Source: Verrucomicrobiia bacterium (GTDB lineage Bacteria > Verrucomicrobiota > Verrucomicrobiia > Verrucomicrobiales > Akkermansiaceae). Taken from it: DNA of 64,000 nucleotides. The position numbers and the translations under genes were made by a program. Below the pieces are notes generated by a model. That model was given only the letters and a program-made list of their open reading frames with translations. It ran no database searches and had not been told where the DNA came from. Where the stretch lies: positions 48,118-112,117 of the forward strand of contig CANHQJ010000012.1 in the NCBI GenBank assembly GCA_947462875.1, in the 5' to 3' direction. Below are positions 7,254 to 47,814 of the stretch, one piece after another (position 1 is the stretch's first letter; each line of letters begins with the position of its first letter).

Positions 7254-7958
7254 TCAAGGTTGGGCTTTTTCCGGTTCCGCGGGTGGGACGTCAAAAAAAC
7301 GACAGATGCGGATGGGCTTGTAGTCCTGTGGGCCATCGAAGAGGAAAATGTAATTGCGCCTGCCCGGACGATTGCCCCACTGGGCGGAATAGACGGGTTT
7401 CATTTGATTGTCCTTCATGATGGCCATGGCGATATCGATCTCACTGACTTCCTTTTTCCATGCAGCGTCCGAGATCACGGACTCCTGCCCGGGCTTTACG
7501 GCAAACTTGCGCTCGCCCATAATCACGGAAACGGTAGAATGCGAGAAATTGAAAAAGCGATAGTCCCCGGCATCGATGCGCGCCTTGCTGATATCGTAAG
7601 CCATTAACTTCAGGGGGGATTCTCCCGTCTTGAGACAAGCGAGCAAAACGCGCTCGGTGTTCATCGGTAGATCCACTGCGGCGATGGGAGCGGGCAGAGG
7701 AGGTTTCGCGGCAAACTCTTCCTTGGATTTGCGCAGGATGAAACGTTGCGGACCCTGATAGCGGAGTGGCTCACCCAGTCCGGTGGGATTCGCCTGAAGC
7801 AGCGTAAAATCCTTACCATTGTGAAAATACAATTCACTTACAGATTCGTCCAACGCTATGGTAACGATCTCTGTTTTCACGACAGGATCCTGCGCCGAAG
7901 CGTATGGTGTTAGATAAAAGAGAAAAATGGCGAAGAGTTTTTTCATGGCAGGAGGCAT
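7254..7958 (-). CDS. Hypothetical secreted protein
   Basis: 234-aa ORF with signal peptide (MKKLFAIFLFYLTPYASA). Its start codon shares one nucleotide with the stop of the upstream giant gene (TGATG at 7956-7960), suggesting translational coupling. Confidence 0.5.
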   Translation of the reverse strand: MPPAMKKLFAIFLFYLTPYASAQDPVVKTEIVTIALDESVSELYFHNGKDFTLLQANPTGLGEPLRYQGPQRFILRKSKEEFAAKPPLPAPIAAVDLPMNTERVLLACLKTGESPLKLMAYDISKARIDAGDYRFFNFSHSTVSVIMGERKFAVKPGQESVISDAAWKKEVSEIDIAMAIMKDNQMKPVYSAQWGNRPGRRNYIFLFDGPQDYKPIRICRFFDVPPAEPEKAQP

Positions 7959-10900
7959 CAGATTTCAGATTGGCTGATCCAGCGGAAAGAAGTGAGTTGA
8001 TAGCGGCGACCAAAGGCTCGGTTCGTGGGTGAGGTGAGTTCGGCAGGGGTGCGGAAACTGGGGTCGCGCGAGTCGAGGTAGTTTGCGTAGCGTTGCACCA
8101 TGCCCTCGCAACAGGCGCGGGCGATGACCCTGCCATTGCTGTCCAAGGCTTCGCCGCAGGCGCGGATTTTGAAATAATCCGAACGGGCCTGGAGGAGCGG
8201 TCCAAGCGACTGAAGCACGTCTCCTTGCAAGACATACGCGGCACTGCCAGCGGCGGAATTTTCATTCGATGTGGCGTTAGAGAACTGGCTGCCGGGTGGT
8301 TGCGTTGCCATTTTTCCGACGGAATTCGGCAAATTGGCATTGAGCGTGCGATCGAGGGCGGCTTGCAGTGCGCCTTTTTGTTGATGCGCCACGTTGCTGC
8401 TCTGTGGGTGGCGATTGACAAATTCCGCCAACGAGCGGAAGGGCCCGCGTGCTTTGACTTCGGTCACCATCTCTTGGGCGAGTTGATCGATTTCGGCATC
8501 GGAGAGCCTGCGCCAGCCTTGCCAAAAAGCATCGCCATCGCCCGAGGCTCCTTGTGTGTAGGGCAGGTTGGTGAGAGAGTGGCCAAAGCGGTTGAAACGC
8601 GCGCTTGCTGGATTTTGCCACGTGACGGCACCCGTCTGTGGATGGAGCACAGGCAACTGCGAGGCGCCCATCGATGCGAGCAAGGTTTTCCACGCGTTTT
8701 TCGAGGTCGAGTTGATGTTGAACGCGCCTTTGATCATGATGCGTGCGGCGATCGCTTCCGGGGCGCGATCTCCCGAATCTGCTAGAATTTTGTCGATGGT
8801 GGTGTCGCCGCGAGCAGGCAAAAAATGCATACGCGGATTCGGCAGCGTTTTGGCACCGGACTGGAGTTGTTTGCTATCGAAAAATCGATCCCATGAGGCA
8901 CCGGAGCCATTGACGTAATCCAGAGCCATCGTGGAAAAGAAATAGTTATCCCAGAGCTTTTTGTTCACGTCAAAGGACACGTCAGTCACGTTCAATCCGC
9001 TGATGCCGTTGAAATTAGGATTGCTGGTGGATCGAAGTGGGATGCGCGGATTGGCGTAGGAATTGCCCACCACGAAACCGGGCTCGAAATTGTAGCGTGA
9101 GAGTTGCGCGTGCTGGAATTGACCGATCGATACCAGCGGCGAGCGCGGCACATCATAGACGATCACGTTTGTCTTGCCGCCGGCCAGTGTATTGGAAGAA
9201 CCGCCGAATCCCTGGTAACGTCCACCGGCGCGATTGACCTCGGGCTCGGTGATATTGCTGCCACCTTCCGCGAGCAGTCCGCGATTGCCGCCGAGGCCGT
9301 CACCCACGACGCGCGGGCGACCGGGCGGATTCCAGGCTCCGATGAATGGCGAGGTCGTGTGCCAGCCGCTGCGCTCGCCGGTGCTGCTCACGCGCGAGCC
9401 GTCCCAGAGGGAATTGGTGACGAGCGCGCGTGGGTTGGCATCGATCCAACCACGCAAGCGTTGATTCGCATCGGGCGCTTCGATCTGATTCGTGGTGCGG
9501 CTGAAAAACGACCACGTCGCGATGTTCGGTGTCACGGTATCTCCTGCCAGGTCTTCGATCAGGTAAGTCGCTTTGCTGGTGTTCAATCCGCCGTTCGATC
9601 CGGAAACGACAGGCTCCGGCACTCGAAGAGCTGTGGTGATCGAGGGATCGCTGCCGCCATTCCACAGCTCGGTAGAACGCAAGAGGATGTTGTTGGCCGA
9701 TTTCAGGGTGAACCAAGTGGAAGAAGCCGAGGATAAATCCAGCGAGGGAAACTTGCTTCTCACTTCATTGCTTTGGGTGTCTTGCAGCACGATGTCGCCG
9801 AACCAGGCGCGATAGCCTTTGGGAACGAGCCGCGTGTTTCCGGCATCGTCTTTCAGATCGACGATAAACGCGCCTTTCTCGCTCCATCCCGGTTTGAGCG
9901 TGTACGTTTGTCCTGCTCTGACAGTGATGCGCTCGAGCACGGAAAACAATCGGAACTCGCCCGGTTGCAAGTCAATGACGGGAGTTTCGAGCTGCAGCCA
10001 TCGGCCCGCATTGCCATCGCCCGGTGTGGGAATCACGCTGCCGCCATTGGTCCATTCCTCGCGCAGCCACAGCCTTGTGAGTCGGCCATCGGTGAAGGTG
10101 CCGTTTCCGGTGGGTCTGGCATAGTTGAATCGCAAATACGGATAGAGCGCCCAGTCGAAGCGATACGAAGTCGCACGAATCGTAATATTGTAGGGATTCC
10201 AAAGTCCTACGACCGGTTGAATGCCCACCTGTGCCCGATAGAACTCGGTGTTCGATGGTGGGTTGGCAGGCGGGGCCAGCTCCGCATTGAGGCGAAAGCC
10301 GATTTGAAACATCGAGAGCACGGGCGCGACCGGGCTGTTGGTTTGTTGCACATCGCGGCGGAAGCTTCCCTGATTGTGATTGGTGTAGGGAAGCCAGGTT
10401 TTGTAGCGGAGATCGGACTCGACGAGCGGGTGCCCGCCGACGAGCGGAATCTGTTGGCCACTGACGTTTTGCCAAAGCGTGGCATAGTTCCAGAGATTGC
10501 CCCAGTTGGGTCCGGTCGGCACGCTGCCATTTCTGCTGATGGCATCGCTGAGATAAAACTTCGCGGGAGTGGAGGTGGTGAAACTGAAAATCGGCGCACC
10601 ATTCCATGTCAGAGCGGAGGGTGTGGCACCGAAGTAGCGATCGCCGAATCGTTTGGAAATCTGCGAGCGGTCGAAGATCAGCGAGAGATCCGCCTTCATG
10701 CCTCCCGCCACGACATTCACGGGAAGGCCGAAGCCGCCCGTGGTGACATCGTGAAAAAACTCACGATCGAGAGCCGGGTTCGCCGCGGCAAGAGCGACGG
10801 TGGGGAGCGAGATGAGAGACTGTTTGTCCAGGGCCGCATCAGGCGCAAAGGCGGACCAGCTGTTTCCCAGGCTGGTCCATCCGCCTTCGAGTGGCGACTG

Positions 10901-11536
10901 CGATTGAGCAAGACGTTCGCGATCATGGGCAGGCGTCGATTTTGGTCGGGCCACGTCCACGCGCGCTTTGGTCCCCTCATCGGCAATCCACCAGGCATAG
11001 CGCCCGCGGTTGTTTCCTTGCGCAATGGCGACGACGGGTGCGAGCAGCTCTCTGTTTGTGTTGGGCGCGCTGAGGTAGGAACCGAGTTTGAGCGCATCGC
11101 CCTGCGTGGCGGAAGTGGATGCGGTCAGGTTTCTGTTAGGATTTGGCAGGTGACCGCTCACCAGCCACTGGATGGCAGAACTCTTGGGATCCGTGGTCAA
11201 AAAGGAAGGGCTGACATTCGTCACTCCGGTCCAATGCGGATGCGCGGGCTCGGCACTGCCAATGTGGGCGGAGGGAAAGGTAACCCGTTGATCCGGCCCT
11301 GTGGTTTTTTGCAATTCGCCTATCGCGAGCATCAGCGCCATGCGGGCGTTCGCCCTGGCGATGGACTGGGCGCTCTGAGCCGAAGTGTTTCGCAAAGTCA
11401 CACTGCTCAGACCAAGCATGCCGACCGCGAGCAGTGTCAGCAAAACCAGCAACGACAGCGTGATCACCAGCGTGAAACCGGATGGTTCATGCGCTCGTGT
11501 CAGCCGTCCCAGGGAAAGCGGGTGGCGGTTGTTCAT
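7958..11536 (-). CDS. Giant (about 1190 aa) secreted protein with prepilin-type N-terminal cleavage/methylation-like segment
   Basis: The long ORF reaches 11761, but the plausible start is the internal ATG at 11536 (MNNRHPLSLGRLTRAHEPSGFTLVITLSLLVLLTLLAV). That is a type IV pilin/pseudopilin-like leader followed by a hydrophobic helix, common in Verrucomicrobia. The rest is Gly/Asn/Ser/Trp-rich with no recognised catalytic motif. Confidence 0.65.
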   Translation of the reverse strand: MNNRHPLSLGRLTRAHEPSGFTLVITLSLLVLLTLLAVGMLGLSSVTLRNTSAQSAQSIARANARMALMLAIGELQKTTGPDQRVTFPSAHIGSAEPAHPHWTGVTNVSPSFLTTDPKSSAIQWLVSGHLPNPNRNLTASTSATQGDALKLGSYLSAPNTNRELLAPVVAIAQGNNRGRYAWWIADEGTKARVDVARPKSTPAHDRERLAQSQSPLEGGWTSLGNSWSAFAPDAALDKQSLISLPTVALAAANPALDREFFHDVTTGGFGLPVNVVAGGMKADLSLIFDRSQISKRFGDRYFGATPSALTWNGAPIFSFTTSTPAKFYLSDAISRNGSVPTGPNWGNLWNYATLWQNVSGQQIPLVGGHPLVESDLRYKTWLPYTNHNQGSFRRDVQQTNSPVAPVLSMFQIGFRLNAELAPPANPPSNTEFYRAQVGIQPVVGLWNPYNITIRATSYRFDWALYPYLRFNYARPTGNGTFTDGRLTRLWLREEWTNGGSVIPTPGDGNAGRWLQLETPVIDLQPGEFRLFSVLERITVRAGQTYTLKPGWSEKGAFIVDLKDDAGNTRLVPKGYRAWFGDIVLQDTQSNEVRSKFPSLDLSSASSTWFTLKSANNILLRSTELWNGGSDPSITTALRVPEPVVSGSNGGLNTSKATYLIEDLAGDTVTPNIATWSFFSRTTNQIEAPDANQRLRGWIDANPRALVTNSLWDGSRVSSTGERSGWHTTSPFIGAWNPPGRPRVVGDGLGGNRGLLAEGGSNITEPEVNRAGGRYQGFGGSSNTLAGGKTNVIVYDVPRSPLVSIGQFQHAQLSRYNFEPGFVVGNSYANPRIPLRSTSNPNFNGISGLNVTDVSFDVNKKLWDNYFFSTMALDYVNGSGASWDRFFDSKQLQSGAKTLPNPRMHFLPARGDTTIDKILADSGDRAPEAIAARIMIKGAFNINSTSKNAWKTLLASMGASQLPVLHPQTGAVTWQNPASARFNRFGHSLTNLPYTQGASGDGDAFWQGWRRLSDAEIDQLAQEMVTEVKARGPFRSLAEFVNRHPQSSNVAHQQKGALQAALDRTLNANLPNSVGKMATQPPGSQFSNATSNENSAAGSAAYVLQGDVLQSLGPLLQARSDYFKIRACGEALDSNGRVIARACCEGMVQRYANYLDSRDPSFRTPAELTSPTNRAFGRRYQLTSFRWISQSEI

Positions 11537-11562
11537 GTGGGTTTTGGGGAATGTGGTATGCT

Positions 11563-13857
11563 TCAGGAATAACAACGCACGGCAAAAAGCGCGGCGGGAG
11601 CATGGGGAGGCTTTCCGATGATGCGCAGCTTCAGACAGGTGGTGGTGATCGGAGAAGAGAAGAGTATGGACCGCCGCGACTGGTGGTTGTGAGAAATGGT
11701 TGCCACGGATTGAAACGCACCGTTTGACATTTCCGCTTCGACCGTTACATCGCTGATGCAAAAGGGCATGATGCGCTCCGGATGTCCCATGAGCACGGAT
11801 TCCATCGGGTGATCAAAGTCCGTATCGAAATCGAATTCGATCGAAGAAATGATCTGGGGCGCTTGCCAAGCCAGTTGGACCGCGGGTTCCTCATCGGCAA
11901 AATCCGCCACCCAGGCATTGGCCGCGCGGGTGGGGCGGTTGATGCCATGGATGAGATGATGCACCCCGAAAGAGGACAAGGCAGGTTCGCAGAGCAAGGC
12001 GAGATTTTTGCCAGCGGGTCTTCTCTTGGGTGTCCAAAATTCGAAGGTATCGATGCCGATGTCCGGTGGCGGGCTCTGCGTGTTGGATTTAGCCACCGCC
12101 TTGTTTCCTGCCTGGCACAGGGCGAGGACTCCGGTGAGGCGCTGTTCGCTCAGGTGGATGGCGACGTTGTCGTTCTTGATCAGGCAGAGGAAAACATAGC
12201 GTGCTTCATCGATCAACGCGGCAAAAGCCAATGGAATCTTTTGCTGTGCTCCGGGAGCGAGAGAGATGTCCAGCGCGGCGAGCGTGACGTCGGGGGTGTG
12301 GTTGTCGGGCTTTTCGCTGATTCTCAGTTCGGCGCGGAGAGTGGTCGCTTCGCTGACATCGGCAGTCACGGTGAACCTCGGCACTGGTCCGGCCGCGCAG
12401 GGGAGCATCATCGCCCATGATTCCGTTAGGAGAGCCGTTTCGCCGGACGCTCCCAGTTCTGTTAGGGTAAGTTCGCTCGATGCGCTGACGGTTGCCGTTT
12501 TTGCCAAGTCTGCGGATTCCTCAAGCGCGACGCCGGGGATGAATTGCCCGGTGCGCAGGAGCCTGTTTTGCAATTCCTTCATGCGATCTTCTCGCAACAG
12601 ATCGCGGGGCATGAGTCCATCGCGCAGGCACAGTGCGGCGGCGATGCCGACGGCTTGTCCGCCATGGGCGCAGGTGGCCATCACGCGGGTGCTGGCGAAG
12701 GCCACATGCGAGGCGCTGATGATGCGGCCGGCGAGCATGAGGTTGGCGATATTGCGGCTGTACATCGTGCGCCACGGAATTTGATAGACTCCTTTGGAAT
12801 GCCACTGGGTGCAGCCGGAGAGCGGGCTGTAAACGCCGTCCACCGGGTGCAGGTCGATCGCCCAGCCGCCGAACGATACGGCATCCGCGTGCACCCGTTG
12901 CTCCACGATGTCCTGCTGGATCAGGATGAGATCGCCCTCGAAACGACGGCTCTCGCGTTTGCCCGGGATCGTGCCTACCCACTCCAGGGTCAGTGTTTCC
13001 GCTTCGGGAAATTGTCCGGAATTCTTGATGTGATTCCACACGCCATACGCGACTTTCCACAGTTCCATCTTGATGTGCTCGCTGTCGTGGATGGTATCGA
13101 TCGCGCCGCCCCACTCGAGCCACCACAAACGGCAACCGTCTTGCCCGGCTTTGAAATCACGCCAGCGTGGGATCTTTGTGATATCCGAAAGCGCGAACGC
13201 GGGTGCGGTGAAATGCACCGGGCGTCCCGTGTCCTTGGAATAAAAATAAATCGAGTGACCTAACAGCTCGGTGGACGCCGTGGCGGGTGCGAATTTTTCG
13301 CCGAACTCCTCGCGCGATTCGGCACCGATGCGGAAGGCGGCGCCGGCGAGAAAGCCGACGATGCCATCGCCGCTGGCATCGCAGAACAGGGGTGCCGAGA
13401 TTTCATAACAAGTGGAATTCTGTGAGCAAAAGGCGCGCACCGAGCGGATCGTATCATCGTCGGCCTTTTCCAGATCATGCACGGCGGTATTCAGCAATAG
13501 CGTGATGTTCGGTTCGTTCAGCACATATTCCAGCACGACTGTGTCGAGAATCAGCGGATTGCCCTCGGGATTGCGGAACATGTTTTCCACGAGAATCTCA
13601 TCGATGACCCCACCTTCGCGCGCCCAGCGGTTGTTGTTGCCCATGTGCGATGTGGCGCCGAGAATCCAGAGTCGCACCTCGCTCGAGGCATTGCCGCCAA
13701 GCACGGGCCGGTCCTGGATCAGCACCACCTTGACGCCGGCGCGCGCGGCGGTGATGGCACAGCACACGCCTGCGAGACCACCACCCACGACGACAAGGTC
13801 GCAGGATTGGCGTATGGTATGAAGAGTCCGTTGCGGAGTCGGTGGATCGATGATCAT
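11563..13857 (-). CDS. FAD-dependent oxidoreductase (PF12831-like, PUL-associated)
   Basis: Dinucleotide-binding motif DLVVVGGGLAGVCCAITAARAGVKVVLIQDRPVLGGN near the N-terminus. Start chosen at MIIDPPTPQ (ATG at 13857); the ORF is open to 13923. About 764 aa. Confidence 0.7.
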   Translation of the reverse strand: MIIDPPTPQRTLHTIRQSCDLVVVGGGLAGVCCAITAARAGVKVVLIQDRPVLGGNASSEVRLWILGATSHMGNNNRWAREGGVIDEILVENMFRNPEGNPLILDTVVLEYVLNEPNITLLLNTAVHDLEKADDDTIRSVRAFCSQNSTCYEISAPLFCDASGDGIVGFLAGAAFRIGAESREEFGEKFAPATASTELLGHSIYFYSKDTGRPVHFTAPAFALSDITKIPRWRDFKAGQDGCRLWWLEWGGAIDTIHDSEHIKMELWKVAYGVWNHIKNSGQFPEAETLTLEWVGTIPGKRESRRFEGDLILIQQDIVEQRVHADAVSFGGWAIDLHPVDGVYSPLSGCTQWHSKGVYQIPWRTMYSRNIANLMLAGRIISASHVAFASTRVMATCAHGGQAVGIAAALCLRDGLMPRDLLREDRMKELQNRLLRTGQFIPGVALEESADLAKTATVSASSELTLTELGASGETALLTESWAMMLPCAAGPVPRFTVTADVSEATTLRAELRISEKPDNHTPDVTLAALDISLAPGAQQKIPLAFAALIDEARYVFLCLIKNDNVAIHLSEQRLTGVLALCQAGNKAVAKSNTQSPPPDIGIDTFEFWTPKRRPAGKNLALLCEPALSSFGVHHLIHGINRPTRAANAWVADFADEEPAVQLAWQAPQIISSIEFDFDTDFDHPMESVLMGHPERIMPFCISDVTVEAEMSNGAFQSVATISHNHQSRRSILFSSPITTTCLKLRIIGKPPHAPAALFAVRCYS

Positions 13858-31472: not shown

Positions 31473-33053
31473 ATGAGTCATCCCTTGATTGTCCGAATTG
31501 TTTCGTTCGCAGCATTGCTCGCGCTCTCGCACATGCACCTGTCCTGCACGGTGACGGGTCCTTCATCGCGCACTTCGGCCGCCTCTCATTCCACCGCGTT
31601 ACGGCAAGTCATCGCGTCGCTGCCGGCCAGACCGGATACCGCGCAGGTGGCGTCCTACAATCAGGCGCTCGATGCCTTGCTCACGCGTTTGTTCAGCCAA
31701 TACACGCCCGCCGCCTTGCAAGGAACGGTGGAGTGTGACGGGCAGAAAATTTCCATCGATCCCGGAACAAGCGAACTCCTGCAACTGGAGCCGCGGCAAT
31801 TCGATGACATCACAATCATTCGCAAGGTGGAAGGCGGCGATCAGGTCCACGCCTTCGTGACGCGCGGCGGGCTGGGCATCCCGGTAGTGATGAAGCAGAC
31901 TTACCGGGCCGAAAAGGCATCCGGCAAAAAACTGTTTCCTCTCAATGGCCGTCATCTGCCCGCCACCGTCATCGCGGATCTTGATCGCGAGGGAACGCTG
32001 GTGCTGCGTTTCCATCACACGCGCAACGTCCGGCAGGCGAAGGTGCGCGGCTCCACGCAGGAGCTGGCCTACGATCTGAGCACGCCGCTGCATCGCAGCA
32101 TGGGTGATCGTTTCCAAAACAACATGGCCTTGCGCGGATTGATCAATTCCGACCGTTATCTCGACGATACGGGCATTTATCTTCCCGATGTCTATGATCC
32201 GGCGAAGATACCCGTCGTGTTTGTGCATGGACTGAAAAGTGATCCGCATATCTGGCAGAACGCCATGAGTGAAGTGTTGCGCGATCCGGTGCTGCGTGAA
32301 AAATACCAGTGCTGGTATTTCCTTTATCCCACCGGATTGCCCGTCTATGCATCGGCGGCGAAGCTGCGACGCATGCTGTATATCGCCCGCGATCACTACG
32401 ATCCCACGCACAGCAACCCGCAAATGAACCGCATGGTTCTCGTGGGGCACAGCATGGGCGGACTGCTGAGCCGCATGCAGACCATCGATAGCGATGATGA
32501 CATCTATCATGCCTTTTTCACCAAGCCGCTCGACCAGCTACCGCTGAAACCCCTGACCAAACAACTGATCGAAGAATCCATGGTGTTCGAGCGTGTGCCA
32601 TTCGTGAAGCGCACCGTCTTTGTGGCATCGCCGCATCAGGGGAGCTCGGTGGCGCAGGTGCCGTTCGTGCGTGCCTGTGGCTTGCTGGTGAATCCCACCA
32701 ACAACCTGGATGCCGTGACGATGGACATCCGTTTGAACGCCCATGATCAGTTGAATCCTGAATTGCGCAAGTTCCGCAACATGGGGTGCCGCAGCGTGCA
32801 GACGCTCTCGCCGCAGCATCCGATTCTCACCTCACTCCAGAGCAGGCCCATGCAAGTGCCTTGTCATTCCATCATCGCGCGCAAACAGCCTAACGGGGAT
32901 GTGAAAAACACGTCGGACGGCGTGGTGGCGTACTGGAGTTCCCATGTGGCGCAAGCCCGGTCCGAACTGGTGGTCCATGGCACCCATAGCTGCACACGCC
33001 TGCCGGATGTGGCGGCGGAAATTCTGCGGATTCTGCGATTGCACTTGCGATAA
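31473..33053 (+). CDS. Alpha/beta-hydrolase, lipase/esterase-like (DUF676-like), probable lipoprotein
   Basis: Starts 6 nt after the patatin stop. Putative lipobox (LALSHMHLSC), PVVFVHGLKSDPHIWQ and nucleophile elbow VLVGHSMGGLLS (GxSxG). 526 aa. Confidence 0.65.
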   Translation: MSHPLIVRIVSFAALLALSHMHLSCTVTGPSSRTSAASHSTALRQVIASLPARPDTAQVASYNQALDALLTRLFSQYTPAALQGTVECDGQKISIDPGTSELLQLEPRQFDDITIIRKVEGGDQVHAFVTRGGLGIPVVMKQTYRAEKASGKKLFPLNGRHLPATVIADLDREGTLVLRFHHTRNVRQAKVRGSTQELAYDLSTPLHRSMGDRFQNNMALRGLINSDRYLDDTGIYLPDVYDPAKIPVVFVHGLKSDPHIWQNAMSEVLRDPVLREKYQCWYFLYPTGLPVYASAAKLRRMLYIARDHYDPTHSNPQMNRMVLVGHSMGGLLSRMQTIDSDDDIYHAFFTKPLDQLPLKPLTKQLIEESMVFERVPFVKRTVFVASPHQGSSVAQVPFVRACGLLVNPTNNLDAVTMDIRLNAHDQLNPELRKFRNMGCRSVQTLSPQHPILTSLQSRPMQVPCHSIIARKQPNGDVKNTSDGVVAYWSSHVAQARSELVVHGTHSCTRLPDVAAEILRILRLHLR

Positions 33054-39622: not shown

Positions 39623-41689
39623 ATGGATCCCATTACTTGGTTCATCATCCTCGCCGTCATTGTATTGATCCCCTTCGGAATCATGACCATTCTCTGCATT
39701 CGCAAAATCCAACCGGGCCGCGCGGGGCTCAAGACCGGGTGGGGCGGCTTGAAGGTCTCCTTCGACTGGATGGTGCGCGTGCCACTGCTCCAGAGCTACC
39801 ACATCATGGACATTTCCGTGAAGAAACTGGAGATCGCCCGGAAGGGGCAGGATGGTCTGGTTTGTAAGGACAACATCCGCGCTGATATCACGGTGGCGTT
39901 TTACATCCGCGTGGATGCCACTCCCGATAGCGTGCGCAAAGTGGCGCAAATGCTCACGCCAGAGCGTGTTTCCGACATGGGGCAACTCCGTGAGCTTTTT
40001 GAAGCGAAATTTTCCGAAGCTCTGAAAACGGCAGGCAAACAAATGGAGTTCCACGAGCTCTTCACCGAGCGTCTGCGTTTCCGCGATGAAATCCAAACCA
40101 CCATCGGCAAGGACCTCGACGGCTTCCTGCTCCAGGATGTGGCCATCGACTACCTTGAACAAACGCCGCTGGAAAACCTCGATCCGAACAACGTTCTCGA
40201 CTCCGAGGGTATCAAAAAAATCACCCAGATCACCCAGCGAGAGCGTGTGGTGGCGAACGAGTATACCCAGCGCGCGCAAGTGCAGGTCGAGAAGGAAAAT
40301 GCCGATGCCGAAATCGCCAAGCGCGAGCAAATCCGTCGCAACGAGGAAGATACCGCGAAACAAAACCGCGCGATCACGGAAATCCGCGCCAATGAGGAAG
40401 CGGAGTCGCGCAAGGTCATCGAGGCCCGTCGCAGCGAAGTGGAGGCGAAGCGCCTCGAAACGGAAGAGGCCATTCACCTGCGCACGGAAGACATGAACCG
40501 TGCGGTGCAGGAGCGCGGCTACACGGTCCGCAAGGAGAAGGAGCGTCTCGAACAGGAAGCCATCCAGGAGGGCGAAGAGGCACGGGTACGCCGCGAACGC
40601 ACGGTCGCGCTCGCCACCATGGACAAGGAAGTCAAGGTTGCGGAAGCTGCCGTGGAAGTGGAGCGCAAGCGCGCCATCGTCGTCGCCGAGCAGAAGGCCG
40701 TGGTCCAGCAGGAGGAGGAGAAGACCAACATCGAAGCCCGCATGACCGCCGAGCGCGTACGCGATGTCACATTGATCGAAGCGGAAATGCTCGCGAAAAA
40801 GGATCAGGTCGAAAAAGTCGTCGCATCCGAAGCACAGAAGGAAGCCCAGAAAAACATCGCCGAGGCTGAGAAAATCAAGCTCGTCACTGCCGCGGAAGCC
40901 GGTCGCGAAGCCGCCCTGCGCGATGCCGAGCGTTTGCAGACGATCGCCGACTCCGAGGCGCTTGCCAGTGATAAAAAACGTCACGCCATGGAGCAGGAAG
41001 CCGAGGGCAAGGCTGCCCAGGAAGCCGCTCCCGGACTGGCCGAGGCGAAAGTCATCGTCGCGAAGGCAAACGCCCGACTCGCCGAAGCTGCCGCCGTGCG
41101 CGAGAACGAGGCCGCCGTTGCCTCGGGCATCGAGGCCAAGGGCAGTGCCGAAGCGAAGTCCATCGAGGAAAAAGCCAAGGCGATGAAACTCCTCCACGAG
41201 GCTGGTCAGCAGCACGAGGAATTCCGCCTCCGCCTCAACAAGGATCGCGATGTCGAACTCGCTGCCATCCACGTCGAACGCGACATTGCCGCCGCTCACT
41301 CGGGGCTCGTCGGCGAGGCGCTCAAGCACGCCAAGATCGACATCGTCGGTGGCGAAAACGACTTCTTCGAGAAAATCGTCCGCTCCGTCGGTCGGGGCAA
41401 ATCGGTGGACCGCATGCTGGCGAACAGCAGCACGCTCACCGATATCAAAAACACCTTCTTCGATGGCGGATCGCCCGAGCAGTTCAAGGCGCGTCTCTCG
41501 CAGTGGGTGTCGGACTTCGGCATCAAGAGCGAGGATTTGAAAAATCTAACGATTGCCGCGCTCCTCACCCGCATGATCGCCGGAAGCAAGGACAATGCGC
41601 TGCAAAGCATGCTCCAGAGTGCCATGGACACCGCGCGCGATGCCGGCCTCGCGAATGCGAAGGCATCGGATGTGCTGGATGTGAAATGA
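39623..41689 (+). CDS. Flotillin family (SPFH/band-7) protein
   Basis: 688 aa with N-terminal TM helix (MDPITWFIILAVIVLIPFGIMTILCI) and SPFH core (RVPLLQSYHIMDISVKKLEI...ITVAFYIRV). A ~300-aa Ala/Glu/Lys-rich coiled-coil region typical of flotillin/YqiK follows. Confidence 0.8.
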   Translation: MDPITWFIILAVIVLIPFGIMTILCIRKIQPGRAGLKTGWGGLKVSFDWMVRVPLLQSYHIMDISVKKLEIARKGQDGLVCKDNIRADITVAFYIRVDATPDSVRKVAQMLTPERVSDMGQLRELFEAKFSEALKTAGKQMEFHELFTERLRFRDEIQTTIGKDLDGFLLQDVAIDYLEQTPLENLDPNNVLDSEGIKKITQITQRERVVANEYTQRAQVQVEKENADAEIAKREQIRRNEEDTAKQNRAITEIRANEEAESRKVIEARRSEVEAKRLETEEAIHLRTEDMNRAVQERGYTVRKEKERLEQEAIQEGEEARVRRERTVALATMDKEVKVAEAAVEVERKRAIVVAEQKAVVQQEEEKTNIEARMTAERVRDVTLIEAEMLAKKDQVEKVVASEAQKEAQKNIAEAEKIKLVTAAEAGREAALRDAERLQTIADSEALASDKKRHAMEQEAEGKAAQEAAPGLAEAKVIVAKANARLAEAAAVRENEAAVASGIEAKGSAEAKSIEEKAKAMKLLHEAGQQHEEFRLRLNKDRDVELAAIHVERDIAAAHSGLVGEALKHAKIDIVGGENDFFEKIVRSVGRGKSVDRMLANSSTLTDIKNTFFDGGSPEQFKARLSQWVSDFGIKSEDLKNLTIAALLTRMIAGSKDNALQSMLQSAMDTARDAGLANAKASDVLDVK

Positions 41690-41743
41690 GTTCCACCATG
41701 CCGCGCAGTGGGTTATCCCGCTCGCGGCGCTGGATTCCTGTGA

Positions 41744-44700
41744 ATGTCCCGCTCCATGTCCGAAGATCCAAACAAGCCTGAGACTCCCGCCGCCGATGCC
41801 CCGAAAGCTGATGGGGCTGCGGAGGCGCTGGGCAGTGCGACGTATGAGATCATACGCCAGCGCCTCTCGGTGCAGGGCGAGAGCCTGCATCAGCGCATGG
41901 CCCAGCTCGATGCCCGCCGTGCCGAGGTCTTTGGTTCGATCGAATCAAAACTGCTCCAGGCCGATCGCATCGTCACGCAGCACAACTGCATGCCGCGCGA
42001 TATGGTGCAGCTCGGCAATGATCGTTTTCTCTTCGCCTTCAACGTCCGCTTCGGGCTCAAAAAGGAAATGGAACTCGCCGATGTGTTCGCCGTTTATCGC
42101 CGCGACCCCGAGACCGGTGCTTTCCGCGAAGAGTCGCTCGATGTCATCAACGACCCGCGTTTTGTCACCGATTTCAAACGACTCTACAACGTCTATGAAC
42201 GCAGCTCGTTCCGCAAGTTCGCGGTGCGCGAGGGCAAGCTGTTCATGAATTTCGGCACGGGTGCGGCGCTGACGGATTTCGCCGCATTCGTTTGGGATTA
42301 CAATGAGGGGAATTTGAAGTTCATCGATGGCCGCGCGGAGGCGGAATACCGGCGCATCGGCTACCCACCGACACACGAATTCCGCTGGCTCAAGCCCGAT
42401 CGCGAGGCCTACCGCTATGGTGATCATCCGCACATCTCGATTCAGGATCGCGTGTTTGTCGAATGCGTGGGCGGTGATTTTACCGTCAAGGTGGAAGATA
42501 ACACCAAGGACGGGGAGGGGGTCTTTCGTGAGGCGGTGGAGGATCGCCACCAGAAACTCGACGATGCCGAAATCGAATACGCGGTCATCAATCAGCTCAT
42601 CGTTCTCAAGGTTCGCCCCTACAAGGAAAAGGACTACCGCTATTACATCTTCAATGAAAAGCAGCACAGCGTCGTGCGGGCGGATTCCATCGGCGATTCC
42701 TGTGTGTTACTTCCGGAGAGCCATGGGTTGATTTTTCCCGATGGCTATTATTTGGCGACGGGGGAATTCAAGCAATTCGAGTGCCGCATCCGCAGCATGC
42801 AAATCGAGCGCGTGATCCAGGCTCCGAACGGCGAGGACGTGCTCTATGTTTTCTACAATCGCAGCACCGGCGACTATGCGTTGATGCCGTATCGACTGAT
42901 CCAACAGCGTGTGGAGGAACGCATCACTTGTCACGGATTTTCCTTGTTCCCGAATGGCCACTTGTTGCTTTTCCGCGCCGATGCCGAGCCGCAAAAGCAC
43001 CACATGATCCAGCTGCGCCAAACGCCCTATCACATGCCGGGCTACGAGCCCGAGGGGCGGCGCGATGCGTTTCTCTATCAGGTCGGCAACCGCGAGGTGG
43101 TGCGCTGCCTCGCCGAGTGCAATGAAGTGCTCACTCTCATTCGACGCGAGGAGCCGTATGCGGAACTTTATACCGACCTCGTGCGTCGCAGCAGTGCGAT
43201 TCTTGATGCCTATCCGTGGCTTTCTCACGCCGATGGTTTTGCCATTGATGCCGCACTGCGTGCCGTAGGTGAGGCAGCGGACCGGGCCGTGGATGAATTC
43301 GATCGTGTCACGCGCATGCGCCGCGAGGCCGTCGAGCGCGTGGCAAAAGCCCGCAAGGATTGCGAATTGCGCTTCCAGGAAATCCGCCGTGCGAATTTCG
43401 CCGCGCTTGCGGATTATGTCGTGAATCTCGCCGCATTGCGCGGGCTGCGCGGGGAGCTGATTTCCCTGCGCGAGGTGCGCTATGTGGTCGTGGCCGAAGT
43501 CGAGGCGCTGGAAAAACAAGTGATCGAGGAGTCGGCGACGCTGTCAGGAAAATGCGTCGAGTTTTTACTTCGACCCGAATCGCTCGAACCTTATCGCAAG
43601 GCCGCAGCAGGACACCTGGCCGCCGTCGATGGCGTGCGCACGGTAGCCGAAGGGAAAAAAATCGAGGAAGCCGCCGGCAAAGAAGGCGGCGAACTGGAAA
43701 TGCTCATTGAAGTCGTGAACGGTCTGCGCATCGAGGATGCCACGCAGACCACGCGCATCATCGATGGCATCACCACCGTTTACTCGACGCTCAATCAAGT
43801 GCGCGCCGCTCTGCGCAATCGCCTTTCCGACCTCGCCTCCACCGAGGGTGCGGCGCAGTTCGCGGCGCAGATGAAATTGTTAGGCCAGGCGGCATCGAGT
43901 TATCTCGATCTTTGCAACACGCCTGCGAAGTGCGATGAATACCTCAATCGTCTCTCGGTGCAGATCGAGGAGCTGGAAGGGCGTTTTGCGGGCTTTGATG
44001 AATTTACTGTCAGCCTTGCCGAGCGCCGCACGGAACTTTACGAGGCTTTCGAGCAACGCAAGGTCGCGCTGGTCGAAGAGCGCAACCGCCGCGCCAACTC
44101 GCTGTCCACCGCTTCCGAGCGCATTCTCAAGGTGATCGTCAATCGACTCGACGGCTTCAAGTCGCTCGATGAGATCAATGCCTACATGGCATCGGACATG
44201 ATGGTCTCGCGCGTCCGCGAAACCGTCGCGCAATTGTTAGATTTGGGCGATGCACCGCGCGCCGATGCCCTCGAGTCGAAGTTAAAAAGCGCCCAGCAAG
44301 AAGCCGTGCGCCGGCTCAAGGATAGGCAGGAACTTTTCGCCGATGGGGATAACATCATCCGTCTCGGCAAGCACAGTTTCAACGTCAGCACGCAGCCCAT
44401 CGATCTCACCGTCGTGCTGCGCGAGGGCGTGCAACATGTTCACATCACCGGCACGCAGTACTTCGATCCCATCACCGACGAGGAATTCGTCGCCACCCGC
44501 GATGTGTGGGAGCAGGAAATGGTTTCGGAAACCCGCGAGGTCTATCGCGGCGAATACCTCGCGTGGCAGATGCTCAAGGCCTGGAACGGCGAGGCGCTGC
44601 CATCCAACGAAGAAGAAAACCTCGAAGCCGTCCGCCAGTTCATGGGCGCACGCTACGTCGAAGGCTATACGCGCGGCATCCACGACATCGATGGCGCGAA

Positions 44701-47047
44701 TATCCTCGCCGCGCTTGTCACCACCACGCGCGAACTCGGTCTCGCCCGCGCACACCCGTTGGCCCGCGCGATGGCACTCGTGTGGTGGCATCGCTTTTGC
44801 CCTGAGGAAACGCGCACTCTGTGGGCATCGAAACTTTCCTCCTTCGCCCAACGCAATCGCCTCTTCCCCGGCGATCCGATCCAGGGCGAATACATCGCCG
44901 CGCTACAATCGCTGTTGCGCACCTTTGCGGAAACGACGGGACTTTATCCCACCGAACGCGCTGATGCCGCAGGGGAGTATCTTTTCCATCAACTCGTCGC
45001 CGGTTGGCCCGCTGCGGTCACGCGCGAGGCGGATCAACTCACCACCGAGTTCGCCCGACAGATCACGCACGGCGGCGCGGAAAAAACCTTTGCCGATGGC
45101 CGCGCCGCACTCGCCGATCACCCCGCCAGCGAGCTCGCCCTCGTGCGCGATTGGCTGCGCGGCTCTATTTTTTCCGCTGCCAAGGATGGCGCAGAACCGG
45201 ACTTCCGCCATCACGAAGAAGCCTGCGCTTTGATCTTCTGTGGCGATGCGCTCCAGCGCCGGGTGGTCACCGCCACCACCACCCTCACACTTACCGGCAT
45301 GAAAGGAGCGCACGCACGCATGCAGGGCGGCGAATACACTTTCGATCACCTCGATTTCCACGAACGCCTCTCCCGCCACGAGCGAGAGGTAGTGCCGCGT
45401 TTCGAGTCCTTCCACGCTCTCAAACAAGCCCGCATCGCCCGCGAGCGCGCCTTGCTGCGCCTCAATGAATTCAAGCCACAAGTGCTCAGCTCCTTCGTGC
45501 GCAACCAGCTCATAGACGATGTCTACCTGCCGCTCATCGGCGACAACCTCGCCAAACAAATCGGTGCCGCAGGCGATAACCGCCGCACCGACCTCATGGG
45601 CCTCTTGCTCGTCATCTCGCCACCGGGCTACGGCAAGACGACTTTGTTAGAATACATCGCCAGCCGCCTCGGCATCGCCTTCATCAAGGTGAATGGCCCC
45701 GCGCTCGGCCACAACGTCGTTTCGCTCGACCCCGAGGAAGCGCCGAACGCCGCCGCGCGCTCCGAAATCAACAAGCTCAACCTCGCGCTGGAAATGGGCG
45801 ACAACGCGATGATCTGCGTGGATGACATCCAGCACTGCAATCCCGAGTTTTTGCAAAAGTTCATCTCCCTTTGCGATGGTCAACGCCGCATCGAAGGCGT
45901 GTGGCGCGGTCGCAGCCGGACCTATGACTTGCGCGGGCGGAAAATCATCGTCGTCATGGCGGGCAATCCCTACACCGAGAGCGGCACTCGTTTCAAAATA
46001 CCCGACATGCTCGCGAACCGTGCCGATACCTACAACCTCGGCGACATCATCGGCAACAGCGCCGGTGCCTTCAAGGCCAGCTACATTGAGAACGCCGTCA
46101 CCTCGAATCCCGCCCTCGTTGCTCTCGCCAACAAGAGCCAAAAAGACGTGCGCGCCTTCATCCGCATCGCCGAGACCGGCCAGCGTGATGGCATCACGTT
46201 CGAGGCCAGCTACAGCTCGCGTGAGATCGAGGAAATCCTCTCGGTGATGAAAAAACTCGTCGCCATCCGCGATGTCGTGTTGCGCGTGAACCAGGAATAC
46301 ATCCACTCCGCCGCCCAGGCCGATGAGTTCCGCACCGAGCCGCCCTTCCGCCTGCAAGGGTCCTATCGAAACATGAACCGCATGACCGAAAAAGTCGTCG
46401 CCATCATGAACGATGCCGAAGTGCGCGGGCTCATCATCGACCACTACCGTGGCGAATCCCAAACTCTCACGACCGGCACCGAGGCGAACTTTTTCAAATT
46501 CAAGGAAATCATCGGCGATCTCACCGCGGAAGAGCAAGCCCGTTGGGACGACATCAAGCGCACCTTCCAGCGCAATACCATCGCGAAAGGCGCGGGCGGG
46601 GACGAGGATCCCGTCGGTCGCGTCGTCGCTCAGCTCCACGGCTTCCAAACCGGCCTCGAAGGCATCCGCGAAACCATCGCCGGCCAGCTCGCCAACCCGC
46701 AGCCTGCGCCGCAGGTTCACCTCGATTTTTCGCCCATCAGCAAAGCCATCGATGGCCTGCGCGCCGACCTCACCCGCCCGCAAGGCGAGATCCCCGAGCT
46801 CCGCAGCGTGCTCCACGAGCTGGAAATGGTCCACAGCACTCTCGCCACCTTAAAAGACCTCGCCGCCCGCCAACGCGAACACCTCGACGATGCCCGCCGT
46901 TTGTTAGACGAACGCGCCCGCCAAGGCTCGGTGGAAATCGAAGTCACCCAAGATCTGTTAGCCAACGAATCCGCCTTCCTGGAGCACTTCCACAAAGCCC
47001 TGGCCAACGCCAAAGAGGCGAAAAAACCAACCAACCCACCCTCATGA
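41744..47047 (+). CDS. Giant (1767 aa) protein with a single MoxR/AAA_5-type AAA+ ATPase module
   Basis: Continuous ORF with no signal peptide or TM helix. Walker A LLLVISPPGYGKTTLLEYIASRLG, Walker B MICVDDIQHCNPEFLQKF, and sensor/Arg-finger region KIIVVMAGNPYTESGTRFKIPDMLANRAD lie around residues 1280-1420. These resemble MoxR/dynein-type AAA_5. The other ~1400 aa have no motif I recognise. Confidence 0.7.
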   Translation: MSRSMSEDPNKPETPAADAPKADGAAEALGSATYEIIRQRLSVQGESLHQRMAQLDARRAEVFGSIESKLLQADRIVTQHNCMPRDMVQLGNDRFLFAFNVRFGLKKEMELADVFAVYRRDPETGAFREESLDVINDPRFVTDFKRLYNVYERSSFRKFAVREGKLFMNFGTGAALTDFAAFVWDYNEGNLKFIDGRAEAEYRRIGYPPTHEFRWLKPDREAYRYGDHPHISIQDRVFVECVGGDFTVKVEDNTKDGEGVFREAVEDRHQKLDDAEIEYAVINQLIVLKVRPYKEKDYRYYIFNEKQHSVVRADSIGDSCVLLPESHGLIFPDGYYLATGEFKQFECRIRSMQIERVIQAPNGEDVLYVFYNRSTGDYALMPYRLIQQRVEERITCHGFSLFPNGHLLLFRADAEPQKHHMIQLRQTPYHMPGYEPEGRRDAFLYQVGNREVVRCLAECNEVLTLIRREEPYAELYTDLVRRSSAILDAYPWLSHADGFAIDAALRAVGEAADRAVDEFDRVTRMRREAVERVAKARKDCELRFQEIRRANFAALADYVVNLAALRGLRGELISLREVRYVVVAEVEALEKQVIEESATLSGKCVEFLLRPESLEPYRKAAAGHLAAVDGVRTVAEGKKIEEAAGKEGGELEMLIEVVNGLRIEDATQTTRIIDGITTVYSTLNQVRAALRNRLSDLASTEGAAQFAAQMKLLGQAASSYLDLCNTPAKCDEYLNRLSVQIEELEGRFAGFDEFTVSLAERRTELYEAFEQRKVALVEERNRRANSLSTASERILKVIVNRLDGFKSLDEINAYMASDMMVSRVRETVAQLLDLGDAPRADALESKLKSAQQEAVRRLKDRQELFADGDNIIRLGKHSFNVSTQPIDLTVVLREGVQHVHITGTQYFDPITDEEFVATRDVWEQEMVSETREVYRGEYLAWQMLKAWNGEALPSNEEENLEAVRQFMGARYVEGYTRGIHDIDGANILAALVTTTRELGLARAHPLARAMALVWWHRFCPEETRTLWASKLSSFAQRNRLFPGDPIQGEYIAALQSLLRTFAETTGLYPTERADAAGEYLFHQLVAGWPAAVTREADQLTTEFARQITHGGAEKTFADGRAALADHPASELALVRDWLRGSIFSAAKDGAEPDFRHHEEACALIFCGDALQRRVVTATTTLTLTGMKGAHARMQGGEYTFDHLDFHERLSRHEREVVPRFESFHALKQARIARERALLRLNEFKPQVLSSFVRNQLIDDVYLPLIGDNLAKQIGAAGDNRRTDLMGLLLVISPPGYGKTTLLEYIASRLGIAFIKVNGPALGHNVVSLDPEEAPNAAARSEINKLNLALEMGDNAMICVDDIQHCNPEFLQKFISLCDGQRRIEGVWRGRSRTYDLRGRKIIVVMAGNPYTESGTRFKIPDMLANRADTYNLGDIIGNSAGAFKASYIENAVTSNPALVALANKSQKDVRAFIRIAETGQRDGITFEASYSSREIEEILSVMKKLVAIRDVVLRVNQEYIHSAAQADEFRTEPPFRLQGSYRNMNRMTEKVVAIMNDAEVRGLIIDHYRGESQTLTTGTEANFFKFKEIIGDLTAEEQARWDDIKRTFQRNTIAKGAGGDEDPVGRVVAQLHGFQTGLEGIRETIAGQLANPQPAPQVHLDFSPISKAIDGLRADLTRPQGEIPELRSVLHELEMVHSTLATLKDLAARQREHLDDARRLLDERARQGSVEIEVTQDLLANESAFLEHFHKALANAKEAKKPTNPPS

Positions 47048-47814
47048 AACAAATCATCCGGCGCATCCAATCCCTCAACGAAAGCGCCTCCCAGCTCACC
47101 GCCGCCGCCGGCCAATTGCCCACTCGCGTGGCCGAACTGCGTGAGGCGATGAAGGCCACCACCGGCGAGCTTCACACCCTGAAGTCCGATATCCAAGTCA
47201 ACATCGCCGATCTCCAAATCGAGCACGAGGAAGACATCGGAGCCGCCTTGGTCGAGGTTGCCGGGCACGCCGCGGTGTTTCAACAAGCCGGATTTTTGTT
47301 GGACGGACTCGATGTCGAGGTCAGCCCCATTCAGCGCATGATTGTCACGCTCAAACGCCAGAAGGATGTGGACATCGGCAAGCTCCAGGAGTTGATCCAG
47401 CAGTATCGCGACCAATCGACCATGCGCTCCATCCTTTCCGCCTTGTTCAAAGCGCGCACGATGGTGGACAACATCGAGATCGACGGGCTCGACTACGATA
47501 AACTCATCATCGGCATCGGCCCCGTGCCCACCATCCGCCTCAGCTGGCGCGACCGCCATGCCAAATCCACCACCCCGGCCTGGCAGCCCACCGCCGCACA
47601 GCCTCTGACCAGCAGCGCCACCACCTCCTTCTTCGGCCACGCCCTCCAGTCGAGCTTCGCCCCCGCGAAACCACCCACCGAGCCCGAAGCGGAAGAAATC
47701 CCAACTCCACAGCCCACCCCCGTCCCCGTGACCAAACCCCCACCACTTCCCACGCAGCCCGTCGATCCACTCGCCCGCTTCAAAGTCATGCCTCATCTCA
47801 ACCGCCCGCAGTAA
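47044..47814 (+). CDS. Hypothetical coiled-coil protein with Pro-rich C-terminus, translationally coupled to the giant ATPase
   Basis: Its ATG (47044-47046) overlaps the TGA (47045-47047) of the upstream gene. The protein begins MKQIIRRIQSLNESASQL..., about 256 aa, with a predicted helical N-half and a tail PTEPEAEEIPTPQPTPVPVTKPPPLPTQPVDP. Confidence 0.55.
   Translation: MKQIIRRIQSLNESASQLTAAAGQLPTRVAELREAMKATTGELHTLKSDIQVNIADLQIEHEEDIGAALVEVAGHAAVFQQAGFLLDGLDVEVSPIQRMIVTLKRQKDVDIGKLQELIQQYRDQSTMRSILSALFKARTMVDNIEIDGLDYDKLIIGIGPVPTIRLSWRDRHAKSTTPAWQPTAAQPLTSSATTSFFGHALQSSFAPAKPPTEPEAEEIPTPQPTPVPVTKPPPLPTQPVDPLARFKVMPHLNRPQ

Follow-up and report, generated by a model that had tools for sequence, protein, structure and literature searches.

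The 64,000-nucleotide window analysed here (positions 48,118 to 112,117 of contig CANHQJ010000012.1, assembly GCA_947462875.1, from a Verrucomicrobiia bacterium of the Akkermansiaceae) carries three consecutive genes, which we call A, B and C, encoding a flotillin-type SPFH scaffold protein, a giant AAA+ ATPase and a small soluble protein, respectively. The three form a genuine operon, and it is near certain that the locus belongs to the operon type in which Ravi et al. 2024 (mSystems, section 19 and Table S3; PMC11237479) described a flotillin together with a giant AAA+ protein, and for which they proposed a role in sub-membrane dynamics and chaperoning. The initial annotation of this DNA had presented the system as undescribed, a claim that falls, as the core pair is already in that work and the giant protein belongs to a family named in Pfam and at NCBI. 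With modest confidence, we favour the view that the locus is a lineage-specific variant of this widespread operon and a membrane-stress module, whose ATPase would remodel, or work together with, the flotillin scaffold.

The coordinates of the genes and their parts are collected in Table 1. All three open reading frames (ORFs) run in the same direction; genes A and B are separated by 54 nt, and the stop codon of gene B overlaps the start codon of gene C in an ATGA at 47044-47047, by which gene C appears to be translationally coupled to gene B. These features are exactly as initially annotated.

The pairing of flotillin and giant ATPase recurs far outside this genome. A word-indexed search returned more than 2228 homologues of gene B, and an exhaustive search with its N-terminal 1200 residues returned 1296 cluster representatives at 50% identity, 416 of them with E ≤ 1e-30. 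The homologues are typically full-length proteins of 1600-1900 amino acids (aa) with the same architecture, and at least 584 species-representative genomes carry one. We fetched 80 loci, from Verrucomicrobiota, Planctomycetota, Bacteroidota, Desulfobacterota, Clostridia and Kiritimatiellota; a tblastn search of plasmid records added Actinomycetota (Streptomyces, Nonomuraea), Pseudomonadota (P. fluorescens pQBR103, Proteus, Halomonas, Vibrio, Photobacterium) and Deinococcota, with full-length matches of 37-47% identity. ORFs were called in 87 sequences (86 loci, which carry L numbers below, and the window) and searched with phmmer. Linkage was scored where at least 2.6 kb of sequence precedes the giant gene, which holds for 70 loci; to count, a flotillin homologue had to be at least 400 aa long. 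In 67 of the 70, drawn from about nine phyla, a flotillin gene on the same strand lies no more than 2 kb ahead of the giant gene, at a median gap of about 124 nt. The adjacency is therefore far beyond chance and conserved across phyla, which disposes of the suspicion that the two genes are neighbours by accident. In the annotated loci of pQBR103, Streptomyces, Hymenobacter and Deinococcus the same-strand gene immediately upstream is of SPFH/flotillin type; its product is an 'SPFH domain-containing protein' on pQBR103, a 'flotillin family protein' in Streptomyces, and an unnamed protein of about 650-720 aa in Hymenobacter and Deinococcus.

Further genes accompany the pair. A YqiJ/NfeD-like (DUF1449) gene precedes the flotillin gene in 55 of 66 loci, and in 14-16 loci, all from Bacteroidota, a pair of genes for a CesT/Tir chaperone and PspA stands ahead of the YqiJ-like gene. 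On a Hymenobacter plasmid the order is Tir chaperone, PspA/IM30, DUF1449, a 722-aa protein and the 'DNA repair ATPase', the last being 47.5% identical to gene B over 92% of its length. PspA is an ESCRT-III-like membrane-repair protein, and because the CesT/Tir-PspA genes recur with the operon in Bacteroidota, we tie the operon to the phage-shock/ESCRT-III-like membrane-repair network. An SPFH protein of B. subtilis is reported to link PspA to the membrane (PMC8581546). On pQBR103 a DUF2491-DUF350-DUF1190-glutathionylspermidine synthase cluster lies directly before the flotillin-ATPase pair (L004:44-3098); this is a yjf-type polyamine/phage-shock-protein neighbourhood, without the PspA gene itself, of the kind covered in Ravi et al. 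2024 (PMC11237479).

The identification of gene A as a flotillin, with an SPFH domain and a long coiled coil, is borne out by several lines of evidence. A single strongly hydrophobic stretch lies near the N-terminus, at aa 5-26, with a Kyte-Doolittle maximum of 3.03; because R27/K28 come directly after this transmembrane helix, the positive-inside rule places the bulk of the protein probably in the cytoplasm. A scan restricted to aa 1-216 finds the Band_7 domain (PF01145) at 44.2 bits, above the cut-off of 23.6 (E 2.8e-11), and aa 206-520, 64% of which are E, K, R, A or Q, form a coiled coil of about 300 aa. Over its full length the protein is 38% identical to a Streptomyces RefSeq 'flotillin family protein' (E 6e-109). 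The last 235 aa are conserved with that protein despite giving no Pfam match at E ≤ 1 to the C-terminal Flot domain (PF15975). Scanned whole, gene A has zero Pfam matches, probably because the coiled coil triggers the composition filter of HMMER; it also has no match in phmmer or profile searches of the PDB. The precomputed Pfam tables show '-' for the flotillin orthologues of L001, L002 and L087 as well. Because Band_7 emerges only from a scan limited to the N-terminal 216 aa, flotillins of this subfamily will be systematically missed by automated annotation.

Gene B is, as first annotated, a cytoplasmic protein of 1767 aa: the ORF has this length and a hydropathy scan finds no hydrophobic segment. 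The Walker A (SPPGYGKTT), Walker B (ICVDDIQH) and sensor-region (GNPYTESG...IPDMLANRAD) motifs that had been quoted for it are all present, and they are invariant across 77 homologues. Invariant in this alignment are G1295-T1299 of Walker A, D1360/D1361 of Walker B (which reads DD, not DE), N1408 of sensor 1, R1426, and the GSYR motif at G1539-R1542. The catalytic motifs of gene B are thus intact, which fits an active enzyme. The earlier call of a MoxR/AAA_5-type ATPase also stands. The AAA_5 hidden Markov model (HMM) scores 25.2-27.9 bits against a cut-off of 22, with PF00004 scoring similarly, and the highest structural-neighbour values are those of CbbQ2 (a MoxR protein; 16.1), NorQ (15.2), dynein (13.4) and midasin (13.2), with ClpA and other clades at 11.7 or below. 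Foldseek relates the gene B model to dynein heavy chains (E 2e-7), and target-normalised TM-scores are 0.55-0.58 for NorQ/CbbQ2 compared with about 0.36 for RuvB. The structure model thus supports an AAA+ core that is MoxR/dynein/midasin-like and closer to those proteins than to RuvB. A Pfam scan of the operon and the genes beside it turned up no VWA domain, in agreement with the initial annotation, which had seen no VWA partner; there is likewise no VWA protein among the named neighbours, and gene C is the only conserved downstream partner.

The AAA+ module is not, as had been thought, the only recognisable part of gene B, since Pfam finds DUF3686 and DUF7902 in its N-terminal half, the former with 537.6 bits against a curated cut-off of 25. 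By these domains gene B belongs to a named family, which Pfam describes under DUF3686 as 'ATPase involved in DNA repair' and to which NCBI gives the product name 'DNA repair ATPase'. The nearest homologues (84-99% identity) come from Luteolibacter-like Verrucomicrobia, and those that are named carry the same product name. The DUF3686 region was called a beta-propeller by Ravi et al. 2024 (PMC11237479); a self-comparison with hhalign found no internal sequence repeat in the region, and we treat the propeller as a candidate fold.

An AlphaFold2 (AF2) model built for aa 568-1767 from the 77-sequence alignment, which covers two-thirds of the ATPase, has a mean predicted local distance difference test (pLDDT) score of 86.7 and a pTM of 0.70. 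The pLDDT exceeds 90 across the middle region, aa 871-1201, for which neither Pfam, PDB-sequence nor fold searches gave a match. In or just before this region D860, G875, E929, G978, H980 and D983 are invariant in the 77 sequences, which come from many phyla, and R935, D981 and H1190 are at least 90% conserved; these residues may mark an interface, or a site for catalysis or for a ligand. Outside the AAA+ module the searches gave no specific structural relative, and phmmer and profile searches of the PDB with gene B gave P-loop matches only.

Gene C differs from the other two in being confined to a single Verrucomicrobial clade. The alignment and an AF2 model show a helix at its N-terminus, then a compact alpha/beta core (aa 60-170), a disordered linker rich in proline and a C-terminal peptide. 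It has no hydrophobic segment, and its tail, initially annotated as Pro-rich, contains 23% proline. The first 170 residues are conserved, and the linker that follows is hypervariable apart from an invariant FF (SFFG) motif; after it, despite this variability, D241, P242, L243, A244, F246, M249 and P250 of the terminal motif DPLARFKVMP are invariant in 27 sequences, which makes the motif a candidate docking peptide. With its translational coupling and a conserved peptide at the end of a floppy linker, gene C looks like an adaptor or regulator. Only 71 homologues were found; all lack a Pfam domain, those that carry a name come from Luteolibacter, and no fold match was obtained. As a candidate PspA/IM30 (ESCRT-III) protein it was rejected, with an hhalign probability of 3.7% and an alpha/beta core in place of a helical hairpin in the AF2 model, and kinship with the PspA, Tir and YqiJ proteins encoded in sister operons was rejected likewise (hhalign probability ≤ 3.7%).

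The clade of the window comprises the window itself, L001, L002 and L007-L013, with giant proteins 52-99% identical. A family HMM places gene C directly downstream of, and co-oriented with, the giant gene in the window, L001, L002, L007, L008, L009 and L013. In two Verrucomicrobial metagenome-assembled genomes (MAGs) a gene C homologue (L011:8422-9285 and L012:15569-16423) also lies directly downstream, convergent with the giant gene, so that the association survives inversion. In the rest of the 87 sequences the HMM found no gene C, all nine positive loci belonging to this clade, and no other downstream gene was found to be conserved across the giant-ATPase loci. The C-terminal tail of gene B (aa 1646-1767) has a similarly narrow distribution, with phmmer matches only in L001, L002, L007-L010 and L013, and can also be read in the protein of L087, a Luteolibacter MAG. 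Strict co-occurrence of this tail with gene C is a weakened idea, as L087 has the tail without a gene C within 8 kb, and L011 and L012 have gene C without a detectable tail. In the clade loci whose upstream genes were read, the operon starts with the flotillin gene, and the gene before it is divergent and unrelated.

Although much work has been devoted to bacterial flotillins, to our knowledge no energy-consuming factor has been described that builds, resets or exploits their assemblies, and an operon found in at least 584 species genomes of about nine phyla, with Proteus, Vibrio, Streptomyces and the Pseudomonas megaplasmid pQBR103 among its carriers, is the obvious candidate for a flotillin 'motor'. 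The initial annotation had proposed a membrane-proximal ATP-driven machine, and we find this the most reasonable reading: the conserved linkage and the intact ATPase motifs speak for it, while the role as a machine is something we infer. SPFH proteins build large cage- or ring-shaped assemblies on membranes, and HflK/C-FtsH and prohibitin-m-AAA are examples of such a cage working with an AAA+ machine. The predicted locations of the three proteins are compatible, with a flotillin whose transmembrane helix is followed by R/K and with genes B and C free of hydrophobic segments.

Physical interaction, oligomeric state, substrate and physiological role enter the model that we propose as follows. 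The flotillin would be anchored by its single N-terminal transmembrane helix and, as other SPFH proteins do, would oligomerise through its coiled coil into a large cage or patch at the cytoplasmic side of the inner membrane. The ATPase probably forms oligomers by way of its MoxR/dynein-type AAA+ core, and its N-terminal region of about 1250 residues (the DUF3686 'propeller', the coiled coil and the middle domain) would engage the flotillin assembly or its clients. ATP hydrolysis would then assemble, disassemble or remodel the flotillin assembly during membrane or envelope stress, a Vps4-like action being the reading that we prefer. In the Verrucomicrobial clade the YqiJ partner would have been lost, and gene C probably acts as an adaptor or regulator by way of its C-terminal peptide. 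The confident structural model of the ATPase offers experimental handles in the MoxR/dynein-type core, the roughly 1250 residues of uncharacterised, highly conserved domains and the invariant GxHDxD site. A bolder form of the proposal casts the giant ATPase as the first dedicated factor that uses ATP to assemble or disassemble a flotillin/SPFH cage, as Vps4 does for ESCRT-III, and gene C, as an orphan-fold adaptor with a docking peptide at its C-terminus, as the functional replacement of the near-universal NfeD-like partner in this clade; we regard it as doubtful.

Several observations weigh against a membrane-stress module working on flotillin. No adjacent flotillin was found in three of the 70 scored loci (L023, L030 and L066). 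A phmmer search of the whole 64-kb window with four YqiJ-like queries gave no match to a YqiJ-like gene, which is missing across the gene C clade also, and the queries used for PspA and CesT/Tir homologues gave none in the window either. Gene C is absent within 8 kb in L087, even though the giant protein there is 84% identical to gene B. The flanking genes are not syntenic between close relatives and the operon occurs also on large plasmids, which suits a mobile accessory or conflict module no less than a stress module. Lastly, no experimental work on any member of the DUF3686 family was found in the literature. The case of L087 bears on gene C in particular: in that genome it is dispensable or encoded elsewhere, and because flotillin, ATPase and gene B tail are all kept there without it, we take gene C to be an accessory and not a core component. 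The three genes are thus not conserved as a unit.

The alternative that survives best is a platform model resembling HflK/C-FtsH, in which the flotillin cage would not itself be the substrate but would corral or regulate the ATPase, and the ATPase unfolds, extracts or assembles other membrane-associated clients, serving quality control or complex assembly in a flotillin microdomain. Enclosing or regulating AAA+ machines, as in HflK/C-FtsH and prohibitin-m-AAA, is the best-documented function of SPFH cages, and the conserved middle domain of gene B (GxHDxD, E929, H1190) could be a client-binding or catalytic site. Flotillin microdomains of S. aureus are also reported to stabilise unfolded proteins (PMC11222466). 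However, no protease or other effector domain was found in gene B, and no conserved client gene was seen nearby beyond YqiJ, flotillin and sometimes Tir-PspA. We consider this model unlikely, but worth keeping in mind.

A second alternative is an anti-phage or conflict system, with the flotillin as membrane sensor or effector and the ATPase as a nucleoside triphosphate-dependent switch that triggers membrane disruption or abortive infection. Large proteins with a single NTPase domain are common in defence systems, and the patchy distribution over some nine phyla, the presence on megaplasmids, the loss of synteny between close relatives, the toxin-antitoxin genes that adjoin the operon in L087 and the variability of the accessory third gene would all suit such a system. 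The searches argue against it. No model of PADLOC-DB 2.0 was significantly matched by any of the three proteins, which tells against the defence role that the initial annotation had entertained; the best match (mad8, E 6e-4) covers the P-loop only, and genes A and C gave nothing below E 0.01. No phage homologue was found by tblastn in 50,697 phage records, and PHROGs returned a P-loop match only. Domain searches revealed neither a nuclease, protease or TIR domain nor any other recognised effector, the operon lies in the window among genes for carbohydrate metabolism and housekeeping, and its recurrent partners elsewhere are membrane-homeostasis genes (PspA, NfeD-like, the yjf-type polyamine cluster). 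We therefore judge a defence function improbable.

Taking the database name literally, so that the giant ATPase would act in DNA repair, is disfavoured and seems to us hardly credible, as the Pfam description of DUF3686, the NCBI product name and weak P-loop-level matches to RuvB and clamp loaders are countered by the restriction of those matches to the generic P-loop region (E 1e-3 to 1e-5), by a core structurally nearer to MoxR, dynein and midasin than to RuvB, by the failure to detect a DNA-binding or nuclease domain in gene B or to find any literature containing DUF3686 or PF12458, and by an invariant neighbour that is a membrane scaffold and not a repair gene. For a broadly distributed and uncharacterised family, the name 'DNA repair ATPase' is misleading.

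Table 1. Features of the operon; positions are those of the window, and residues those of the protein named.
Feature	Residues	Window position	Strand	Basis
Gene A, flotillin-type SPFH scaffold protein	688 aa	39623-41689	+	ORF call
Gene A, N-terminal transmembrane helix	~5-26	39635-39700	+	hydropathy scan
Gene A, SPFH/Band_7 domain	28-169	39704-40129	+	Pfam PF01145
Gene B, giant AAA+ ATPase	1767 aa	41744-47047	+	ORF call
Gene B, DUF3686 domain	48-490	41885-43213	+	Pfam PF12458, E 2.6e-161
Gene B, long helices including DUF7902	568-864			AF2 (model residues 16-297)
Gene B, DUF7902	613-694	43580-43825	+	Pfam PF25472, E 3e-24
Gene B, middle region	871-1201	44354-45346	+	AF2 model and invariant columns
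Gene B, small beta domain	871-909			AF2
Gene B, helical domain with invariant GxHDxD motif (G978, H980, D983)	935-1169			AF2
Gene B, three strands	1172-1201			AF2
Gene B, linker helices	1202-1273			AF2
Gene B, AAA+ alpha/beta core, with beta-hairpin ahead of sensor 1	1288-1431	45605-46036	+	motifs, AF2 model
Gene B, lid and further helices	1432-1617			AF2
Gene B, long C-terminal helices (lower confidence)	~1623-1759			AF2
Gene B, clade-specific C-terminal helical tail	1646-1767	46679-47044	+	phmmer
Gene C, small soluble protein	256 aa	47044-47814	+	ORF call
Gene C, C-terminal motif DPLARFKVMP	241-250	47764-47793	+	alignment

The divergent neighbour of the operon, initially annotated as a pyrroloquinoline quinone (PQQ) dehydrogenase, is confirmed as a GSDH-type dehydrogenase of the PQQ-dependent family, fused to cytochrome c. 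The surroundings in the window are genes of carbohydrate metabolism and housekeeping (GSDH, SDR, sulfatases, glycoside hydrolases, TatC), and the remaining genes, among them GH95, GH43, SASA esterases, sulfatases, TatC and a histidine kinase, make up a typical polysaccharide-degrading Verrucomicrobial context. Two further ORFs, one of 1266 aa (7958-11761, minus strand) and one of 526 aa (31473-33053, plus strand), match no Pfam family at E ≤ 1e-5. A scan of the operon for promoters and terminators was uninformative, the counts not rising above those in shuffled sequence.

Some of the related loci show peculiarities of their own. In a Verrucomicrobial metagenome contig (L002:7176-7993) a Y1_Tnp (IS200/IS605-type) transposase gene and a 121-aa ORF stand between the flotillin and giant ATPase genes. 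The best giant-gene ORF of a Rubripirellula MAG (L048:9917-12247) is only 776 aa long though its tblastn match is full-length, which could reflect a frameshift, a pseudogene or an assembly error. In L030 an ORF upstream of the giant gene (L030:4371-5774, minus strand) contains the sequence 'FIDLFAGLGG', which we take to resemble motif I of DNA cytosine-5 methyltransferases. In L087 the giant gene is followed directly by a 117-bp tandem repeat (L087:13410-13895; 4.2 copies, 93% matches), and then by PIN and PhdYeFM toxin-antitoxin genes.

Among known systems, Vps4-ESCRT-III/PspA offers a conceptual parallel, which Ravi et al. 2024 (PMC11237479) draw too, and the Bacteroidota versions of the operon include a PspA gene. 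In contrast, the window has no PspA gene, gene C is not PspA-like, and the ATPase does not belong to the classical Vps4 clade. The likeness to HflK/C-FtsH and prohibitin-m-AAA, in which an SPFH cage is paired with an AAA+ machine at the membrane, is a mechanistic analogy, with no sequence relationship beyond the SPFH and P-loop folds. The AAA+ partners in those systems are membrane-anchored proteases of the classical clade, whereas gene B is soluble, of the MoxR/dynein clade, without a protease domain, and, counted per AAA+ domain, larger by a factor of five to six. MoxR ATPases are hexameric remodelling chaperones. Compared with the MoxR chaperones CbbQ, NorQ and RavA and with the AAA_5 domains of dynein and midasin, gene B lacks a VWA-domain partner, places its single AAA+ domain after some 1250 residues of unrelated domains, has DD in place of DE in Walker B, and is only 13-14% identical in sequence.

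The operon shares a flotillin-like, SPFH2-type scaffold core with the NfeD-SPFH operons yqiJK of E. coli and yuaF-floT of B. subtilis (PMC2636767). Those operons, as described, have no ATPase partner, whereas the window has the ATPase and no NfeD-like gene; an ATPase partner is not mentioned in Hinderhofer et al. 2009 (PMC2636767) or in a 2026 survey of P. aeruginosa SPFH proteins, and we found no literature that links 'DNA repair ATPase' with SPFH or pQBR103 with flotillin.

The closest relative is the operon of Ravi et al. 2024 (PMC11237479), whose description is purely computational and leaves the system unnamed. They describe the YqiJ/YuaF-type protein as one with three transmembrane segments, and report that abbreviated operons, with flotillin, YqiJ and "in some cases" the ATPase, are distributed more widely. 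By their account YqiJ/YuaF is a common yet optional member, and the CesT/Tir-PspA pair belongs to the extended form alone. The window shares with that operon its gene order and strand, and gene B is an orthologue 42-48% identical, over nearly the full length, to the giant proteins of the Bacteroidota Tir-PspA-YqiJ-flotillin operons. Unlike that operon, the window has neither a YqiJ/NfeD-like gene nor Tir-PspA, the flotillin opens the operon, and a coupled downstream gene C and a clade-specific helical tail on gene B are added. The operon type itself was already known; what is new in the window is a clade variant without the NfeD-like partner and with a small protein of orphan fold. The exchange of the one for the other in a single clade suggests that the accessory subunit is replaceable and that the flotillin-ATPase pair is not.

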